A DNA stretch of 64,000 nt, from positions 39,385-103,384 of the forward strand of contig WTFU01000093.1 of assembly GCA_011523945.1 (NCBI GenBank), given 5' to 3'. The notes beneath the pieces were generated by a model. The model was not told the origin of the DNA. It did no database searches and saw only the letters and a list, made by a program, of their open reading frames with translations. The translations under genes and the position numbers were made by a program. Positions 57,557 through 64,000 of the stretch are shown piece after piece. The DNA comes from Mariniblastus sp. (GTDB lineage: Bacteria; Planctomycetota; Planctomycetia; Pirellulales; Pirellulaceae). Each line of letters begins with the position of its first letter. The first letter of the stretch is position 1.

Positions 57557-58690
57557 TTACCTGATTTTTGGTAATGCGAGCGGTTCTGTTGCATTGGCAG
57601 GGGGAGAATCTAAGGGCATTTCCAACTCCTCGTCGTTCCCCGTGGCTTTTCGCTTCACGGTGATTCGAATTGTTTCGCCTGCCTCGAATCGATTGATGAG
57701 CTGTTTCAATCGCAGCATATCGTTGACCGGATTGCCATTAATACTTAGGAGAATGTCTCCCTCTTTTAATTCCAATCGGCTCGCGGGAGATTTAGGATTC
57801 ACCTTGTTCACAAGGATTCCATCACCCTGTGGATTGGGACCGGATTGAATACCTATAAATGCGGGACGAATATAATCGCCGGCCATCAATCGCTCCAAAA
57901 GTTCATTCGCATTCGCTAGTGGAATAGCAAAACCGATTCCCGAGTCATACCACTCCACTCCCGCCGCTACGGCCTGAGACTGAGGATTCATAGGCACGCA
58001 AATGCCAAGCACGCGTCCCTCGATATCGACCAGAGGTCCGCCGTAATTGGCGGGACTGATATTGGCATCGGTTTGAATCGCGCGACCGCCAATTCTATTC
58101 TTTGCACTAATAATTCCCGTGGACATTGCTGGGCTGGTATCGCCATAACCAACCCCTAGCGAAATTGCCCATTGACCAACCTTGATCTTGGACTCATCCA
58201 ACATTTCCGGAACGGGTAAATCCGTCTTTCCATCAATTTTCAACAGACAAATTTTTCGGGTGTCATCGCGGCCAACCAGTTTGGCAAAATGACGCTCACC
58301 GTCTCCCAGAATAACTGAGATTACCGGCGGCCTTTGAATGAAATTAAATGTGCTTGTAAGAATGTATCCATCTGGAGAAATAACGATTCCGGTTGTATTC
58401 CCCTCTCCCTGCTTTCGAATACCTCCGATCCGTCCTTGAACTGCTGAAACTCCGCCGTACGATTCAATAGTCACCAAGGATGGTGCAACTCGACCAGCCG
58501 CTTTGCGAAAAGCCCTAGAGGTAAGCGCCATTGCTTCTATCAACTCCACTTCGGATAGCTCAGAAGCCGCCGAATCAGATTCATCAATCTTCCATTGATC
58601 GTTGTCGTTTTGAGCAAGCGCGAACGCGAATGGATTAAACAACAGCCCAAACAAGCCGCCAACGATCAAGTACAAAATTTTACCAGGCAT
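57557..58690 (-). CDS. HtrA/S1C trypsin-like + PDZ protein, predicted catalytically dead
   Basis: Trypsin fold with all three triad positions substituted: ILTSTFN, DTRKICLLKI, SPANYGG. One PDZ domain. Confidence 0.85.
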   Translation of the reverse strand: MPGKILYLIVGGLFGLLFNPFAFALAQNDNDQWKIDESDSAASELSEVELIEAMALTSRAFRKAAGRVAPSLVTIESYGGVSAVQGRIGGIRKQGEGNTTGIVISPDGYILTSTFNFIQRPPVISVILGDGERHFAKLVGRDDTRKICLLKIDGKTDLPVPEMLDESKIKVGQWAISLGVGYGDTSPAMSTGIISAKNRIGGRAIQTDANISPANYGGPLVDIEGRVLGICVPMNPQSQAVAAGVEWYDSGIGFAIPLANANELLERLMAGDYIRPAFIGIQSGPNPQGDGILVNKVNPKSPASRLELKEGDILLSINGNPVNDMLRLKQLINRFEAGETIRITVKRKATGNDEELEMPLDSPPANATEPLALPKIR

Positions 58691-58735
58691 ACACCTCTAC
58701 TCCATCTAAGGGACTCATGTCGCTCTACCGAAGAG

Positions 58736-59752
58736 TCATTTCTTCAAACGCGGAGCAATCCTAACACGCACCATTTCAACACCGCGTTTCACAATCATTA
58801 ATACCTCCTCTTCAGGGCGTAAAGATTTAAGAGACTCAGCGTAATCTTTTAAATTGCCAATTTTCTCACCGGCAATCGATACGATCATGTCGTCGCTCTT
58901 TAGTTTGGCTTGGGCTGCAGGTGATCCGCGAACGACTCGATCAATATAGGCAGGATTATTCCTCCCACCAAGCTTGAACAAGACGATTCCAAATTCAACG
59001 TCCTGCCGCTCCATGACCGGCTTAACATCGCTGGTCACGCTCGCTTTCCCATCTACAAATGCCTTGAGCACTGGACTTGGCACGGCATAATTGAGTCGCG
59101 TGTTGGTCTCCGAACTATTGATAATCTTGCCTACGATCCCAACCAACTTCCCGTCAGGCGTTACTACCGCGCCACCCGATGCCCCAGGATTACTGGTAAT
59201 CGCATCAATTAGAATCAACTCCCCGCGATAGGCCACATCTCGTTTGGTCAGTCGGGCCTCCATCGTCGTCCGCAATGATATCACGCCCAGCATTGCCGAA
59301 ACCGGTTCATCTTTATCAGCCACCTTAAACGCGTTACTTAAGGCAATTACCCAGTCTCCCTTTTCACCAACGGATTCTGCTGAAAGCTCAAAAAAATTAG
59401 GCGTATCTGCTTGGATCTTCAGCAACGACAACTGTGTCTCTCGATCACGTTTTAGAATGGTCGCAATATGCTCCGCACCGTCAGCCAGTACCACTTTAAC
59501 CTGCCTGCCATCGAGAAAAACACCCTGCGAAGAAAGGATTAGCCCGTCCTTCGAGACAATAATCCCGGTCGCAAACCCCTCAACTTTTCCAGCCGAAGCC
59601 CCGAATACCTTGGCCATTTTTGGCTGTGACTTCGATATCGCTCGGTTAACAAAACTAGACTGACTTTTCTGCTGTGCGACAGCAAGTTGGTTGCCGGTTA
59701 TCTGCAACGCACAGCCAACCAAAATCGCTATCCGCCAACCGAATCTATTCAA
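58736..59752 (-). CDS. HtrA/S1C trypsin-like + PDZ protein, predicted inactive or atypical
   Basis: ILSSQGV (no His), ETQLSLLKI (no Asp), NPGASGG (Ser kept); one PDZ domain. TTG start after GAGGAG. Confidence 0.85.
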   Translation of the reverse strand: MNRFGWRIAILVGCALQITGNQLAVAQQKSQSSFVNRAISKSQPKMAKVFGASAGKVEGFATGIIVSKDGLILSSQGVFLDGRQVKVVLADGAEHIATILKRDRETQLSLLKIQADTPNFFELSAESVGEKGDWVIALSNAFKVADKDEPVSAMLGVISLRTTMEARLTKRDVAYRGELILIDAITSNPGASGGAVVTPDGKLVGIVGKIINSSETNTRLNYAVPSPVLKAFVDGKASVTSDVKPVMERQDVEFGIVLFKLGGRNNPAYIDRVVRGSPAAQAKLKSDDMIVSIAGEKIGNLKDYAESLKSLRPEEEVLMIVKRGVEMVRVRIAPRLKK

Positions 59753-59806
59753 TTTAGTTTCTCCTCAAAACAACCGATGCACCCTAAACTATGTTCCTTA
59801 AGGCAT

Positions 59807-61666
59807 TCACTTCGTTTGGGCATTCGCGTAAAACAAATCATCTGGCACAGTCTTCAGCCACTCGAAATCCGAATCGATCACTTGCCGTTCGACACTTTCC
59901 TCAAGTCCAAAAACTCTCTGACGTTTGAGCGGCAACTGCACAGGTCCGACCTGTGTCCACGATTCAAAAGTAGTGCCTCCACCAATCAAGCAGTCTCTCT
60001 CAAAAGAAGATTTGACCAAATTAATGTTTGGTTTCCCGTCGAGGTCAAACATGGAAAACCAGCAGTACATTGAGTCACCCTCGGATGGATCGACCTTAAA
60101 GCGATAAGCATTTGCGCCAATGGCTTTATCACTTCCATCTATCAGGACTTTCCCAAATAAGTCAAACGGCTTCTGCCGAAAAACAGCGCTCATCATTAAT
60201 GCCTGATCAAAGCCCCACTTTGACTGTGATTCACGCAAAGACAATTCTGACGTCTTACCTTCCTCGGTCAGCCAAAAAGAATCGCCATCGTACTGATAAA
60301 CAACCAGTTGACCGTCAATGGTCTGGTCGACACGAATCCGACCGTCCGAAGCCAGCCAAGTCTCTTGAGTTCCCTTTACTTTGCCATCCTCTAAAATTTC
60401 ACCTGCCAACTTTACAACGCCGATAGAAAATTCTTGATGAATACGTTCTTTCCACTGCTTGAGGATTTGCTGAGCGTAGCCTCGATTAATTTCTGGGTAA
60501 CGGATATCACCAGGATTTGCTGACAGCAGCGCAATCATCTCTCGCTGACGTTCCAGTTGCTTCTTTTTTTCCGGATCTTTCTCCTCTTTACCACCCTGTC
60601 CGCCGCGAACGCGAGGCTTGGCATACGGGAGACCAAACGTCCGCACCACGATTTGATGTTCAGTTCCATCTTGTTTTCGAATCAAAAGCTCGGTAGGCCA
60701 ATCTTCGGGCAATGTACAGATTAAATTAGTAAACTGATTGGCGTTTTTGACCTTCTCCCCTTCGAACTCCAACAGCTCATCTCCCAGATCAAGCCCCGCT
60801 GCTGCGACTGGAGCGTCTCGATTTAATTTTGAGCAAACAACTTTTCCTCCGCGATCAGAAAAACTCGCATCGAGTGTCGCATGCTCCACTAACTTGGTGG
60901 CTAATAGATCAGGAATAAAGTTCTTTATTTGGTTCGCAGAAATAGCGTAACCCAATCCAACATTCACTCGGCCCCGTTCCTTAAAACTCCCTCGTCCATT
61001 AATTCCAATCACTTCGCCATTGAAATTGAACAATGGACCGCCGGAATTCCCCGGATTGATCGATGAGTCCACCTGGATGCAGTTACCGTAAACCAGTTGA
61101 TTCTTCCCCGCTCCCGGTTGATAGCGCTTCACGCCACTTACAATTCCCAGCGTAACAGTAGGAACTTGATCTTCCGTCAATATAAAAGGATTGCCCATAG
61201 CTAGAGCCCAATCGCCCACCTTGACCTTATCGGAGTTCCCGAGAGGAGTTGCGGGAAAGACGGACTTTCCTTCCAACTGAATGATGGCAAGATCCCCGCC
61301 CGGATCCGTTCCGATCAATTTCCACTTGTACAATTCGCCATCGGCGAGTCCACCCCATCCTTTCACACCCGCTCCCATGATGACATGGTGGTTGGTTAAA
61401 ACGATACCGCTGGGATCGATAATCACACCCGAACCACCGCCCTGGCGATCTTCGTCATAGATGGCAACGACACTTTGGATCACTCGATTGATCGCTTGAA
61501 TCCGGTAACGCTCAATCGCTGCGACGCGCTGTCGGTCTTGCAGACTCAAATCGTCGTCAGCATTCAGGTAGCAAAGGGGAGCAATTAAAATGCACACGAG
61601 CCAAGAAAAAACAATACGAACCTCGAGGTGCTGCTTGATCATAATTTCACTTATCCATAAAGCCAA
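59807..61666 (-). CDS. HtrA/S1C serine protease with intact triad, PDZ and an extra C-terminal domain
   Basis: LTNHHV, GGDLAII, SINPGNSGGPL, PDZ, and about 250 aa of beta-rich C-terminal extension. Confidence 0.9.
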   Translation of the reverse strand: MALWISEIMIKQHLEVRIVFSWLVCILIAPLCYLNADDDLSLQDRQRVAAIERYRIQAINRVIQSVVAIYDEDRQGGGSGVIIDPSGIVLTNHHVIMGAGVKGWGGLADGELYKWKLIGTDPGGDLAIIQLEGKSVFPATPLGNSDKVKVGDWALAMGNPFILTEDQVPTVTLGIVSGVKRYQPGAGKNQLVYGNCIQVDSSINPGNSGGPLFNFNGEVIGINGRGSFKERGRVNVGLGYAISANQIKNFIPDLLATKLVEHATLDASFSDRGGKVVCSKLNRDAPVAAAGLDLGDELLEFEGEKVKNANQFTNLICTLPEDWPTELLIRKQDGTEHQIVVRTFGLPYAKPRVRGGQGGKEEKDPEKKKQLERQREMIALLSANPGDIRYPEINRGYAQQILKQWKERIHQEFSIGVVKLAGEILEDGKVKGTQETWLASDGRIRVDQTIDGQLVVYQYDGDSFWLTEEGKTSELSLRESQSKWGFDQALMMSAVFRQKPFDLFGKVLIDGSDKAIGANAYRFKVDPSEGDSMYCWFSMFDLDGKPNINLVKSSFERDCLIGGGTTFESWTQVGPVQLPLKRQRVFGLEESVERQVIDSDFEWLKTVPDDLFYANAQTK

Positions 61667-61727
61667 CTGCTCATTTCACCAAGATTCGATGAACCAACTT
61701 TCAAATGATCGGAGAGTGCAATCAACC

Positions 61728-63047
61728 CTATTTAGTTTTTAAAAACCGAGCTTCGCCCCAGTTGGCATGATCGCCCAAATCAAACTCCGCTCCAGGAGAC
61801 ACCACCAGAACGATCTCCTTAATTCCCTCAATATCAACATCTATTTCCAAGGGACCTCCACCGCCGGTCACTCGTTCAGACCAGAGTTCGATTCCATCAC
61901 CACGAACAATCATTTGGCAATCGCCGCGCCCATTGGTTTCAGCGGCAATTCCCGCAATCGCAGAGAATCGGTCAAAACCTGATTCATTTGCAAATACCAG
62001 CCTTGACGAGGCCTGCACTCCTAATCCTTTTTTGAATGTTCTGACTTCCTCAGAATCCTTCAGTCGTATCTCAAGTGGATTACCCGCAACACTCAAGTTC
62101 CTCTTCCAAGGCCGTTGAAAGGCAAAGACCGCCTTCTCTTGAACCTCAAGCGGTTCCTGTTCGGAGAGATACCTCAACCGATCTGACTTAATCGTGATCG
62201 AACTAACGTTTCCCGCCAAAACTTCAATCGTATTTCCTGCTGCGACTCCAACTTGGAAAACTCCACCCTCCAGTTCAAGGATTTCACCGACCATTCGAGA
62301 ACCATCCACTAGCTGGATCAAAGCGATCGTTTCTGTTGGTTTTTCAAGGCCTAGATCCGCTGTGATAATTGCTTTCACTTTCTCAAGACCAATCTTCTTT
62401 GACTCACCTTTGTACTCAAGCCTCACAAATTCTGAATCAACCGCTTCCAGTATCCCCTCAACCATCCTCTCGCCAGAGGAGGTGTTTACGACCACAGTAT
62501 CAAAGTCAGCAGAGGGATTTTTAATTTTTCGATCGACCAATGGCGAGTTCGTCCAAACAATTGCACGTAACAATTCGAGCGGCAGTTCACGCGATTTAAG
62601 AGACGAAACCAATTCAAGTTTTTCATCCTCCATCGAAACAGAGCTTACCCACAATTCTCCTCCCCCGACCAATTTTAAATTAGCACCATCAGCTGGAGTG
62701 TCGCTAGTTTTCCTTGCGGTATTGATGGACAGCACCTGCTGGACATTTAAGTCTGGCGGTAATTTATCTCCCTCAATCTCGCCCCCCGATGCAATCGCCT
62801 TTATCGAAGAATTGATGGTTTTGCCGTTAATCAATTCGATAGACACTCGGCCTAGATCGTTATCCTGTGTCGATGCGGTTGCAGGAGCAACAAGCCAATT
62901 TCCGCAGAAACCTTCTGACGAAATAAAATCACCTAGGCAAACACCAACCAGAATCCCCGTCCAAGCCAGTAACCTATTGGAAGAGAAAAAACAGCCGTTC
63001 AGATTATTGTTTTGCAGTCGAATCTTCATGCTGTTATTGTATCTCAC
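61728..63047 (-). CDS. Secreted NPCBM/NEW2 domain protein
   Basis: C-terminal FKKGLGVQASSRL...FSAIAGI...VRGDGIELW...IDVDIEGIKEIVLVV...DHANWGEARF is the NPCBM pattern. Confidence 0.85.
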   Translation of the reverse strand: MRYNNSMKIRLQNNNLNGCFFSSNRLLAWTGILVGVCLGDFISSEGFCGNWLVAPATASTQDNDLGRVSIELINGKTINSSIKAIASGGEIEGDKLPPDLNVQQVLSINTARKTSDTPADGANLKLVGGGELWVSSVSMEDEKLELVSSLKSRELPLELLRAIVWTNSPLVDRKIKNPSADFDTVVVNTSSGERMVEGILEAVDSEFVRLEYKGESKKIGLEKVKAIITADLGLEKPTETIALIQLVDGSRMVGEILELEGGVFQVGVAAGNTIEVLAGNVSSITIKSDRLRYLSEQEPLEVQEKAVFAFQRPWKRNLSVAGNPLEIRLKDSEEVRTFKKGLGVQASSRLVFANESGFDRFSAIAGIAAETNGRGDCQMIVRGDGIELWSERVTGGGGPLEIDVDIEGIKEIVLVVSPGAEFDLGDHANWGEARFLKTK

Positions 63048-63085: not shown

Positions 63086-63122
63086 AATAAAAAACGGCAC
63101 TCCCCACATTGGGCAGTGCCGT
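63086..63122 (-). terminator. Intrinsic terminator after the extended TPR gene
   Basis: Minus strand ACGGCACT-GCCCAATGTGGGG-AGTGCCGT-TTTTTATT: an 8-bp stem plus T-run, 30 nt after TAA 63153. Confidence 0.8.
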
Positions 63123-63152
63123 ATTAGTTATCTCAACTGACGAAAATAGCAG

Positions 63153-63998
63153 TTATTTTTCACCTTCGCCGTTCGCAGCCTCAGTGTATCTTTCTACAAT
63201 GTCACGATACCTCGCCGGTAATTTTTCCTTTACAGCGTTGTTCGCTGGATCTCGACTGCGATCTCTCAGCCGACTCCAAGGACTCGCCGGGGAATCATCG
63301 TACGACTTTTTCACAACCTGACCGTTGGGATTACTACTCGACCCACCCTTTTGGCTTTTCTTACTTTGGCTTGGCTTCGACTGAGCTTGCTTCTGACCAG
63401 AAGCTTTTTTACTCGCCTCTCAGGTACCGCCTTGTTTACAGTTTGAACTGCACTCTTTTTTCTCTTCCTCTTTGATAAGTTTCGTCAGCATGTTGACGAT
63501 TTTATCCTGCTCTACTTGCGTGACCTCATCGGTTTCCACCAATTCTAAACGCCGCCGCGAATAGTCCATCCTCTGGTAAACGTCATCTAGTTTACCTTTC
63601 TGAATCGATTGAATTTGCTGGACTTGCCGCCAAGCACTCACACGCAGGCGTTCCGGGGCATTCGGATTGAACTGAAGGAATCGCATCAATGATTCAATGG
63701 CTTCCTGATTCTTTAACAACCCCGCCTGGGCAACTCCGAGATAATACTGGGCACTACCCTGATGTACTGTGTAACCGCTGAGATCACCAACCAAATTCTC
63801 TAAACATGGCATGGCTTCCTCAAAACGCTCTTCATTCATTAACGTTCTTGCGAGATAAAAACTTGCGTCCCCAGCTAAGTATTTATCGTCAGACTGCTGC
63901 AATGGCGAAAGAAGCTCAATCGCCTGTTCGTACCCACCATTTACATCTGATGCTGAAATTGCATCTGAATATTTTGGGTACATCAAAATAAGCGACTC
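63153..63998 (-). CDS. TPR-like protein (5' partial) with an in-frame UGA at 63420-63422; candidate selenoprotein
   Basis: The frame is open from the window edge through TPR-like helices (ASFYLARTLM, AQYYLGVAQAG) to ECSSNCKQGGT-TGA. It then runs 88 more sense codons (EASKK...WSRLRDRSRDPANNAVKEKLPARYRDIVERYTEAANGEGEK) to TAA at 63153-63155. The confidence value is for the readthrough call; the CDS itself is near-certain. Confidence 0.7.
63389..63404 (-). promoter_or_regulatory. Candidate bacterial SECIS element
   Basis: Minus strand GCUUCU-GGUC-AGAAGC: a perfect 6-bp stem with a G-initiated 4-nt loop. The stem starts 15 nt after the UGA and the loop 21 nt after it. Confidence 0.65.
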
Positions 63999-64000
63999 AG

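Follow-up and report, generated by a model that had tools for sequence, protein, structure and literature searches.

The window analysed here is a 64,000-nucleotide stretch of a Mariniblastus genome (G000; the window is G000:C20:39385-103384, and window positions are used unless marked otherwise). At its high-numbered end the window carries, on the minus strand, the larger part of a gene for a tetratricopeptide repeat (TPR) protein that is interrupted by an in-frame UGA. Public gene calls terminate at this TGA and give a product of 267 aa, 'tetratricopeptide repeat protein [Mariniblastus sp.]'. An initial annotation, made from the letters of the window, had proposed that the UGA is read as selenocysteine (Sec). 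We put the probability at about 0.88 that UGA268 is decoded as Sec by SelB with the help of a selenocysteine insertion sequence (SECIS), and that the product is a 356-residue exported protein with a putative redox or metal function.

The features of the locus are collected in Table 1. All five statements that the initial annotation made about the sequence were confirmed, and its proposal withstood most of the refuting conditions that it had named. The whole gene occupies G000:C20:102540-103607 and has 356 codons, with the UGA at codon 268 (U268). Its start codon, ATG, lies 223 nt past the window end (window-equivalent 64221-64223; G000:C20:103605-103607). Beyond the TGA at 63420-63422, the same frame continues on the minus strand for 88 further codons to the TAA at 63153-63155, as the initial annotation had pointed out, and the UGA falls within a cysteine cluster in the peptide EEEKKE-C-SSN-C-KQGGT-U-EASKKASGQK. 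TGA is an ordinary stop codon elsewhere in G000, where it terminates 411 of the 1614 open frames that are 400 codons or longer, and for that reason reassignment of the codon was rejected. Also in agreement with the initial annotation, a strong terminator is found only 3' of the second stop (hairpin 63122-63094 and a U-tract extending to 63088, z = -4.75). A consensus terminator scan overlooked this terminator because its stem has one internal mismatch.

Table 1. Features of the predicted selenoprotein gene, its neighbour and further UGAs of the same genome. Positions refer to the window, except in the last two rows, which give strand-specific coordinates in G000.
Feature	Position	Strand	Basis or remark
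Predicted selenoprotein gene, portion inside the window (282 of the 356 codons and the stop TAA 63153-63155)	63153..63998	-	orthologues cover residues ~30-353 in one frame
In-frame UGA, predicted selenocysteine codon, residue 268	63420..63422	-	kept in 8 Mariniblastus lineages; same motif in 3 other lineages
SECIS-type upper hairpin GCUUCU-GGUC-AGAAGC; loop 63398-63395, starting 21 nt after the UGA; spacer 63405-63419	63389..63404	-	invariant in TGA-bearing Mariniblastus
TPR domain, residues 29-228, in-window part	63540..63998	-	AlphaFold2 pLDDT >90, all-helical
Long helix, residues 233-263, with a Cys pair at its end: Cys258 (TGC 63452-63450) and Cys262 (TGT 63440-63438)	63435..63527	-	AlphaFold2
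Q/K/S/G linker of low complexity (residues 265-312) with Sec268 at its start; disordered in the prediction	63288..63431	-	AlphaFold2 pLDDT <50
Conserved C-terminal module, residues 313-356	63156..63287	-	alignment; synonymous/non-synonymous differences
Intrinsic terminator after the true stop TAA; its stem (8 + 4 bp) has one mismatch and is followed by U6	63088..63122	-	z = -4.75
NPCBM-domain gene on the downstream side, a conserved neighbour; three HtrA-like genes come next	61728..63029	-	neighbourhood comparison
Further predicted selenoprotein UGAs	C36:67272(+), C166:3062(-), C88:21697(-), C148:9649 and 12559(+), C181:20026(+)		
Further predicted selenoprotein UGAs	C183:19844(+), C198:22011(-), C80:1124(+), C115:179592(+), C7:5090(-)		

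Comparison with relatives indicates that the sequences on either side of the UGA form a single gene. Six-frame searches, first of 100 and later of 400 genomes from the same family, returned about 90 orthologues (401 family genomes) that span query residues ~30-353 in one stop-free frame, and since these orthologues cover both the linker and the tail without a stop, the two segments are part of the same protein. Each genome sample, here and below, covers a subset of its group, and genomes that are related to one another do not count as independent. A separately encoded tail, which the initial annotation had listed as damaging to its proposal, was never seen in relatives; in the non-TGA orthologues linker and tail are without exception joined within a single frame. 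Five Mariniblastus species share the frame and the length of the coding sequence (1071 nt) exactly. Pairwise codon differences among these species number 25-33 synonymous versus 2-3 non-synonymous downstream of the UGA, and 83-108 synonymous versus 20-36 non-synonymous upstream of it (the closest pair, 37/10, was left out). Purifying selection begins right after the UGA and includes the 36 codons that precede GTG 63314. On this comparative evidence the tail, whose peptides include SYDDSPASPWSR and DPANNAVK, is under purifying selection and is translated in frame with the N-terminal part of the protein.

The UGA itself is conserved beyond the strain. A single TGA occupies the same place in four further Mariniblastus species (89-92% amino-acid identity), and three metagenome lineages beyond these five species keep it as well. 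For metagenome relatives at 66-70% identity, the database proteins stop at ...ECSSNCKKGGT, and the underlying DNA reads TGA followed by the in-frame tail. The occurrence of the codon in the genomes of five GTDB species and in independent metagenome assemblies from ENA, NCBI and JGI disposes of two concerns raised at the outset, that the TGA might be specific to one strain or an error of assembly. Among the metagenome and database loci compared (L-numbers), L096 (JGI 3300000948 contig; P0022) reads EASSSAKKGGT-U-EAGK and would have a Sec with no neighbouring Cys. The JGI gene call for L096 rendered the in-frame TGA as Trp (code 4-type), and the full-length database protein accordingly has W at the Sec position.

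Three lineages of Pirellulales outside Mariniblastus also have a single in-frame TGA at this place: genomes G023 (EKKGGT-U-KGCGSGPCG) and G059 (ERKGGA-U-QGCGSG), genome G409 from another family (EAGS-U-PGCQG), and three species of genus g141 from a third family (EGCGT-U-PNGG). Their motifs share G-[T/S/A]-U within UxxC or CxxU contexts. In a maximum-likelihood tree of 64 orthologues the Sec forms fall in two well-separated parts, and at least three state changes are needed to account for them. One Mariniblastus clade (support 97/96) unites eight Sec and three non-Sec sequences, a pattern consistent with one gain of Sec and later losses. Nested within the Sec clade is the non-Sec sequence L104 (ENA ERZ17293926 contig; P0003, 86% identical), which sits on a branch longer than that of its sister. 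The three changes in L104 (two of C to V, one of U to S) came together and look like a coordinated loss of the whole Cys/Sec cluster.

The initial annotation had expected Cys or Sec at the position aligned with the UGA, and the alignment departs from this in part. The closest non-TGA relatives have Ser or Lys there. In G023 the predicted Sec falls opposite the second Cys of orthologues with ECNCKGGGSG (T-U-K-G-C-G-S-G against N-C-K-G-G-G-S-G, in a low-complexity Cys cluster with indels). Where the cluster is of the C-x2-C-x5-C type, its third Cys comes to lie no more than one residue away from U, again in a low-complexity region with indels.

The stretch around the UGA and its hairpin is the least variable part of the gene, to a degree that exceeds chance. 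Over the gene as a whole, 66% of codons differ at their third position in the five species, and among 1024 windows of 48 nt the least variable runs from UGA-11 to UGA+37, with 2 variable sites compared with a mean of 13.8 (standard deviation 4.7). The 48-nt element has a folding energy of -11.2 kcal/mol, a 6-bp stem, the loop GGUC and a spacing of 21 nt, and it lies within the bacterial SECIS (bSECIS) limits quoted in PMC13188914 (loop of 3-9 nt, stem of 4-16 bp, G in the first two loop positions, spacing of 16-37 nt and a minimum free energy (MFE) of -7.5 or lower). A search of Rfam with E up to 10 gave no relevant match. The hairpin GCUUCU-GGUC-AGAAGC that the initial annotation had drawn 15 nt past the UGA is present in the RNAfold MFE structure. 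The lower stem CUGAG/CUCAG that had been suggested along with it was not counted towards the element: the G000 group has it, but L096, L097 and L100, in the wider TGA-bearing clade, do not keep it. Read on the plus strand, the hairpin at 63389-63404 followed by T6 appeared in the consensus scan as an intrinsic-terminator look-alike, owing to the A6 run on the coding strand. No plus-strand gene terminates at this site, and we therefore take the resemblance to be a coincidence.

Conservation of the hairpin goes together with the TGA, a point that the initial annotation had named as a check. Its 16 nt are identical in all eight TGA-bearing Mariniblastus sequences and broken in all four of the closest non-TGA homologues, in which the equivalent 16-mers (GCUGCGGAAGAAAAGC, GAGGCUUCCGGAGAGA, UCUUCUGGGCAGAAGC and GCUCCUGGUCAGAAGC) fold at -0.5, 0, -2.7 and -1.1 kcal/mol, respectively, compared with -5.6 kcal/mol for the Sec forms. 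In g141 the same geometry (15-nt spacer, 6-bp stem and GGUC loop) is built from another stem sequence, GGCUCC/GGGGCC. G023, G059 and G409 have stems of 5-7 bp, with loops that start 19-20 nt past the UGA and a G within the first two loop positions. We formulated a hairpin rule (stem of 5 bp or more that includes no more than one G-U pair, loop of 3-7 nt that has G among its first two nucleotides, and loop start 16-26 nt after the codon) that holds for 15 of 15 TGA-bearing genes, whose loops start 19-21 nt downstream. It holds for 4 of 44 non-TGA orthologues, for each of which 15 anchor codons were tried, and two of these four reach -4 kcal/mol.

G000 has the machinery for Sec insertion that the initial annotation called for. 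Searches found selA (588 bits), selB (370 bits), selD (259 bits) and tRNA-Sec (67 bits), all over curated cut-offs, and selB and tRNA-Sec are present in the other TGA-bearing genomes tested as well. A genome-wide scan of G000 for a UGA plus hairpin inside long frames brought up 11 or more other selenoprotein genes whose UGA stands at the canonical redox Cys, eight of them Pfam-confirmed (Table 1). The selenoproteome of this planctomycete is thus a large one. They include two deiodinase-like genes (C36, Pfam-confirmed, and C166, by motif only), FdhA (C88), a DsbD-type thioredoxin (W-U-P-T-C), an HMA domain (M-T-U-G-G-C), ArsC-like, Prx/BCP and AhpD/CMD (C-F-Y-U) proteins, and three FG-GAP/UnbV_ASPIC proteins (DL-U-SC; C148 Pfam-confirmed). 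The loops in these genes (GGUC, GGUCU, AGUUC, CGUGA and similar) start 17-24 nt past the UGA. A deiodinase-like gene has a GGUC loop at exactly 21 nt, and FdhA has GGUCU at 18 nt.

Two features concern the sel genes themselves. The selD gene of G000 (G000:C78:7323-8231; L002) lies in a 740-residue open frame in which it is fused to a large N-terminal domain, and this may be the Ndh-SelD fusion that was described for marine metagenomes (PMC2398784). G023 has two full-length selB genes (contigs C124 and C278) in a 14-Mb assembly with 5% contamination, which may reflect a mixed bin or a real duplication.

An AlphaFold2 model built from 46 sequences (mean predicted local distance difference test (pLDDT) score 78.6) begins with a signal-peptide helix, followed by the TPR domain, the long helix and the linker listed in Table 1, and has three short helices at 315-350 within the C-terminal module. 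The invariant residues of this module include W316, R318-L319-R320, D325-P326-A327-N328 and R340. A Foldseek search with the model returned TPR proteins only, the best of which was the TPR domain of YbgF (TMt 0.87, root-mean-square deviation 2.1), and Pfam TPR_2/TPR_6 scored 23 bits, which is under the gathering cut-off. Evidence of a thioredoxin-type domain was sought and was lacking in all three places: no Pfam match of that type, an all-helical model and Foldseek hits confined to TPR proteins. The protein likewise has no enzyme domain.

The Cys cluster at the end of the helix is common to most orthologues and is the sole Cys-rich spot in the protein, the remainder of the mature protein having 0-2 Cys. 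Of the 64 orthologues, 17 have neither Cys nor Sec in the cluster and two have exactly one Cys or Sec, while 21 have two Cys, 11 have three Cys, eight have two Cys plus a predicted Sec, and five have one Cys plus a predicted Sec, so that 45 hold at least two such residues. A disulfide or selenylsulfide couple, or a chelating site, would be expected to give such a pattern, in which the residues are nearly all present or all absent and come as pairs. Most Pirellulaceae genomes also contain a paralogous family (matches at E 1e-8 to 1e-23, e.g. L045-L051) that has no Cys cluster and has the same architecture, with a helical domain, a poly-Q/G linker and a C-terminal DGWGNLPPAER...LPTHYREAIEAYFRKLA module.

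The gene is the last of a Bat-like MoxR-DUF58-BatA-VWA operon. In G377, a relative with a complete genome, the order on one strand is MoxR (AAA_3), DUF58, a BatA_N/CARDB protein, a 260-aa protein, a PQQ_2/TPR protein, a VWA-like protein, a 583-aa protein, a Q/G-rich coiled-coil protein, the selenoprotein-family gene, an NPCBM protein and three HtrA-like genes. Local tblastn located the same upstream genes of G000 on contig C15, where they run off the start of the contig, and what remains of the coiled-coil gene at the end of C20, a C-terminal fragment, is found immediately upstream of the selenoprotein gene. The G000 assembly breaks inside the Q/G-rich coiled-coil gene, just past window position 64000, and C15 and C20 are evidently adjacent. 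Most of the operon neighbours match no family in Pfam or NCBIfam. Downstream, the NPCBM gene and the three HtrA-like genes (57557-63047, minus strand) are conserved neighbours in other genera (G377) and in metagenome contigs, and the terminator lies between them and the selenoprotein gene. Four more MoxR-DUF58 clusters occur in G000 (C128, C41, C53 and C189), and the paralogous family described above probably belongs to other clusters of this type.

How else might the locus be explained? Were the UGA a true stop, the protein would be the 267-residue TPR protein of the public gene calls, and the downstream frame would be untranslated or would hold a small separate gene, for which a 53-aa open reading frame starting at GTG 63314 is indeed present. 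We regard this as very unlikely, since linker and tail are joined in every non-TGA orthologue, purifying selection sets in directly after the UGA and covers the 36 codons ahead of that GTG, frame and length are the same in the five species, and termination of transcription is signalled only past the second stop. The chance that the TGA is a recent nonsense mutation in a pseudogene, or an assembly or sequencing error, is close to negligible. The a priori frequency of such events is the sole argument for it, and it is at odds with the presence of the same TGA in five species and in independently assembled metagenomes down to 66% identity, as well as with the lack of any more stops or frameshifts downstream.

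A leaky UGA at which a standard amino acid (Trp, Cys or Arg, for example) is inserted independently of SelB, by programmed readthrough or regulated termination, would give isoforms of 267 and 356 aa, with the hairpin acting as a stimulator only. Such readthrough would agree with a tail that is clearly translated, with the occurrence of Ser and Lys in close relatives (the position evidently tolerates residues other than Cys) and with the modest energy of the upper hairpin on its own. It does not sit well with the SelB-type geometry and GGUC loop, which recur in bona fide selenoprotein genes of G000 and in the unrelated stem of g141, with the recurrence of the UGA within CxxU/UxxC motifs in independent lineages, or with the presence of selB and tRNA-Sec in each TGA-bearing genome checked. 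We judge readthrough of this kind improbable. Inefficient recoding may nevertheless yield some of the short isoform as a by-product.

Several observations weigh against reading the gene as one for a selenoprotein with a redox or metal role. The folding energy of the 71-nt segment is ordinary in comparison with shuffled sequences (z = -0.18), so the case for the hairpin is built on its conservation, and the upper hairpin alone is weak (-5.6 kcal/mol). The motif of the window gene, C-x3-C-x5-U, places Cys and U in a C-x5-U arrangement rather than the UxxC/CxxU of other lineages. Ser or Lys at the Sec position, as found in the nearest non-Sec relatives, is atypical for selenoproteins. The absence of any Cys from 17 of the 64 orthologues and the unpaired Sec of L096 imply that the cluster is dispensable for the core function of the protein, and on this comparison the Cys/Sec cluster is accessory. 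A crude test that counted Cys in the upstream coiled-coil and downstream NPCBM proteins revealed no partner whose Cys content varies with the motif class. The proposal that Bat proteins form a periplasmic complex that reduces or repairs oxidised proteins or exports reducing power speaks for a redox role, whereas a study in Leptospira did not support a role for Bat in oxidative stress (PMC3557215).

We weigh the Ser and Lys of the closest relatives as probable secondary losses and not as evidence against Sec. A change from TGA to TCA or TCG takes one step, the region is of low complexity with indels, the hairpin decays along with the UGA, and the Sec of the G023 type aligns with Cys. Sec insertion at UGA268, the core of the initial proposal, is strongly supported by the conserved UGA and hairpin, the translated tail and the Sec machinery, and we infer Sec incorporation itself, together with a redox or metal role for the cluster, from these sequence data.

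In the mechanism we favour, the mRNA hairpin GCUUCU-GGUC-AGAAGC, with its loop 21 nt downstream of the UGA, would recruit SelB with Sec-tRNA(Sec). The product would then begin with a signal peptide and continue with the TPR domain, a long helix whose end carries Cys258-x3-Cys262, and a flexible Q/K/S/G linker that has Sec268 at its start, and it would close with a conserved C-terminal module of 45 residues. The TPR part may serve as the scaffold of a periplasmic Bat-like complex, and Cys258, Cys262 and Sec268 may pair up, in an exposed place on a flexible arm, as a redox centre of the disulfide/selenylsulfide kind, or possibly bind a soft metal. The cluster would act on or link to a periplasmic partner, with Sec raising its reactivity. 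Since recoding is never complete, a 267-residue product without linker and tail would also be expected.

A bolder version, which we hold only tentatively and consider less probable than not being the case, is that this is the first selenoprotein hosted by a non-enzymatic periplasmic TPR scaffold of a Bat-like system, and that its cluster is a redox-sensing or redox-transferring element or a selenylsulfide tether. Because the UGA precedes the linker and C-terminal module, the supply of selenium would toggle the protein between the 267-residue and full-length forms. If this were true, the long-unexplained Bat/MoxR-VWA operons would gain a testable redox chemistry.

The recoding signals resemble those of canonical genes with a SECIS inside the open reading frame, such as E. 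coli fdhF and, in G000, FdhA (C88) and the deiodinase-like gene on C36, in that a UGA is followed by a 3' GGUC-loop hairpin 17-24 nt on and sel genes are present. The host of the UGA differs from these, however, since it does not have an oxidoreductase fold and its Sec would lie at the boundary of a helix and a disordered linker instead of in a structured active site. Thioredoxin-fold selenoproteins of Planctomycetota with UxxC/CxxU motifs are likewise exported, and UxxC/CxxU is the arrangement in the sister lineages G023, G409 and g141, whereas the protein described here lacks a thioredoxin domain, is all-helical in the model and has the motif C-x3-C-x5-U. Like the TPR components of Bat operons (BatB/BatC/BatE-type), it is a signal-peptide TPR protein that closes an operon of MoxR AAA_3, DUF58, BatA_N and VWA genes. 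This likeness is one of operon context and architecture. A coiled-coil, a Cys/Sec cluster, a Q/G/S linker and a C-terminal module like those seen here have not been described for Bat proteins. The GCUG tail of thioredoxin reductase and the eukaryotic proteins SelK and SelS carry Sec on an exposed flexible or terminal segment, with or without a neighbouring Cys. Sec would lie outside the fold in all of these cases, but those proteins are eukaryotic, or an enzyme with a defined redox relay, and share no homology with the protein of the window.

The family does not appear in the catalogues that we compared. The initial annotation had placed a TPR scaffold outside the known selenoprotein families, and the 2026 review catalogue (PMC13188914) indeed has no TPR, tetratricopeptide, Planctomycet, MoxR or von Willebrand/VWA entry. 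NCBIfam release 20, which has models for most catalogued families, contains no specific model and gave weak generic TPR matches far under the cut-off, and the new selenoprotein families of deep-Sep are all different from this one. A 'hypothetical' selenoprotein candidate of the planctomycete P1 was listed, by IMG gene number, with Rhodopirellula sallentina (Cys) as its closest hit and with a SECIS present (Kim et al. 2016, PMC4807772, Table S9). Rhodopirellula-type orthologues of the window protein carry ECNCKGGG, and the P1 candidate might belong to the same family. We class the family as a new selenoprotein family, uncatalogued in PMC13188914, NCBIfam and deep-Sep, that uses a known recoding mechanism. 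The unusual point is the host, which on the evidence of the model is a scaffold protein and not an enzyme.

Public annotation truncates the protein at the UGA, and in each of the Sec-bearing lineages seen it passes over the linker and the conserved C-terminal module. With at least 12 Sec genes in G000 alone, the selenoproteomes of planctomycetes appear to be under-catalogued. Nearly all catalogued bacterial selenoproteins have oxidoreductase-type folds, and a Sec on the disordered arm of a TPR scaffold would widen that range. Sec appears to have been gained and lost repeatedly within one order, and the family, with approximately 0, 2 or 3 Cys and with or without Sec, offers a natural series in which the interchange of these states can be studied. 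The position of the gene at the end of its operon ties selenium to a widespread Bat-like MoxR-DUF58-VWA cluster and hints at a redox role that can be tested.

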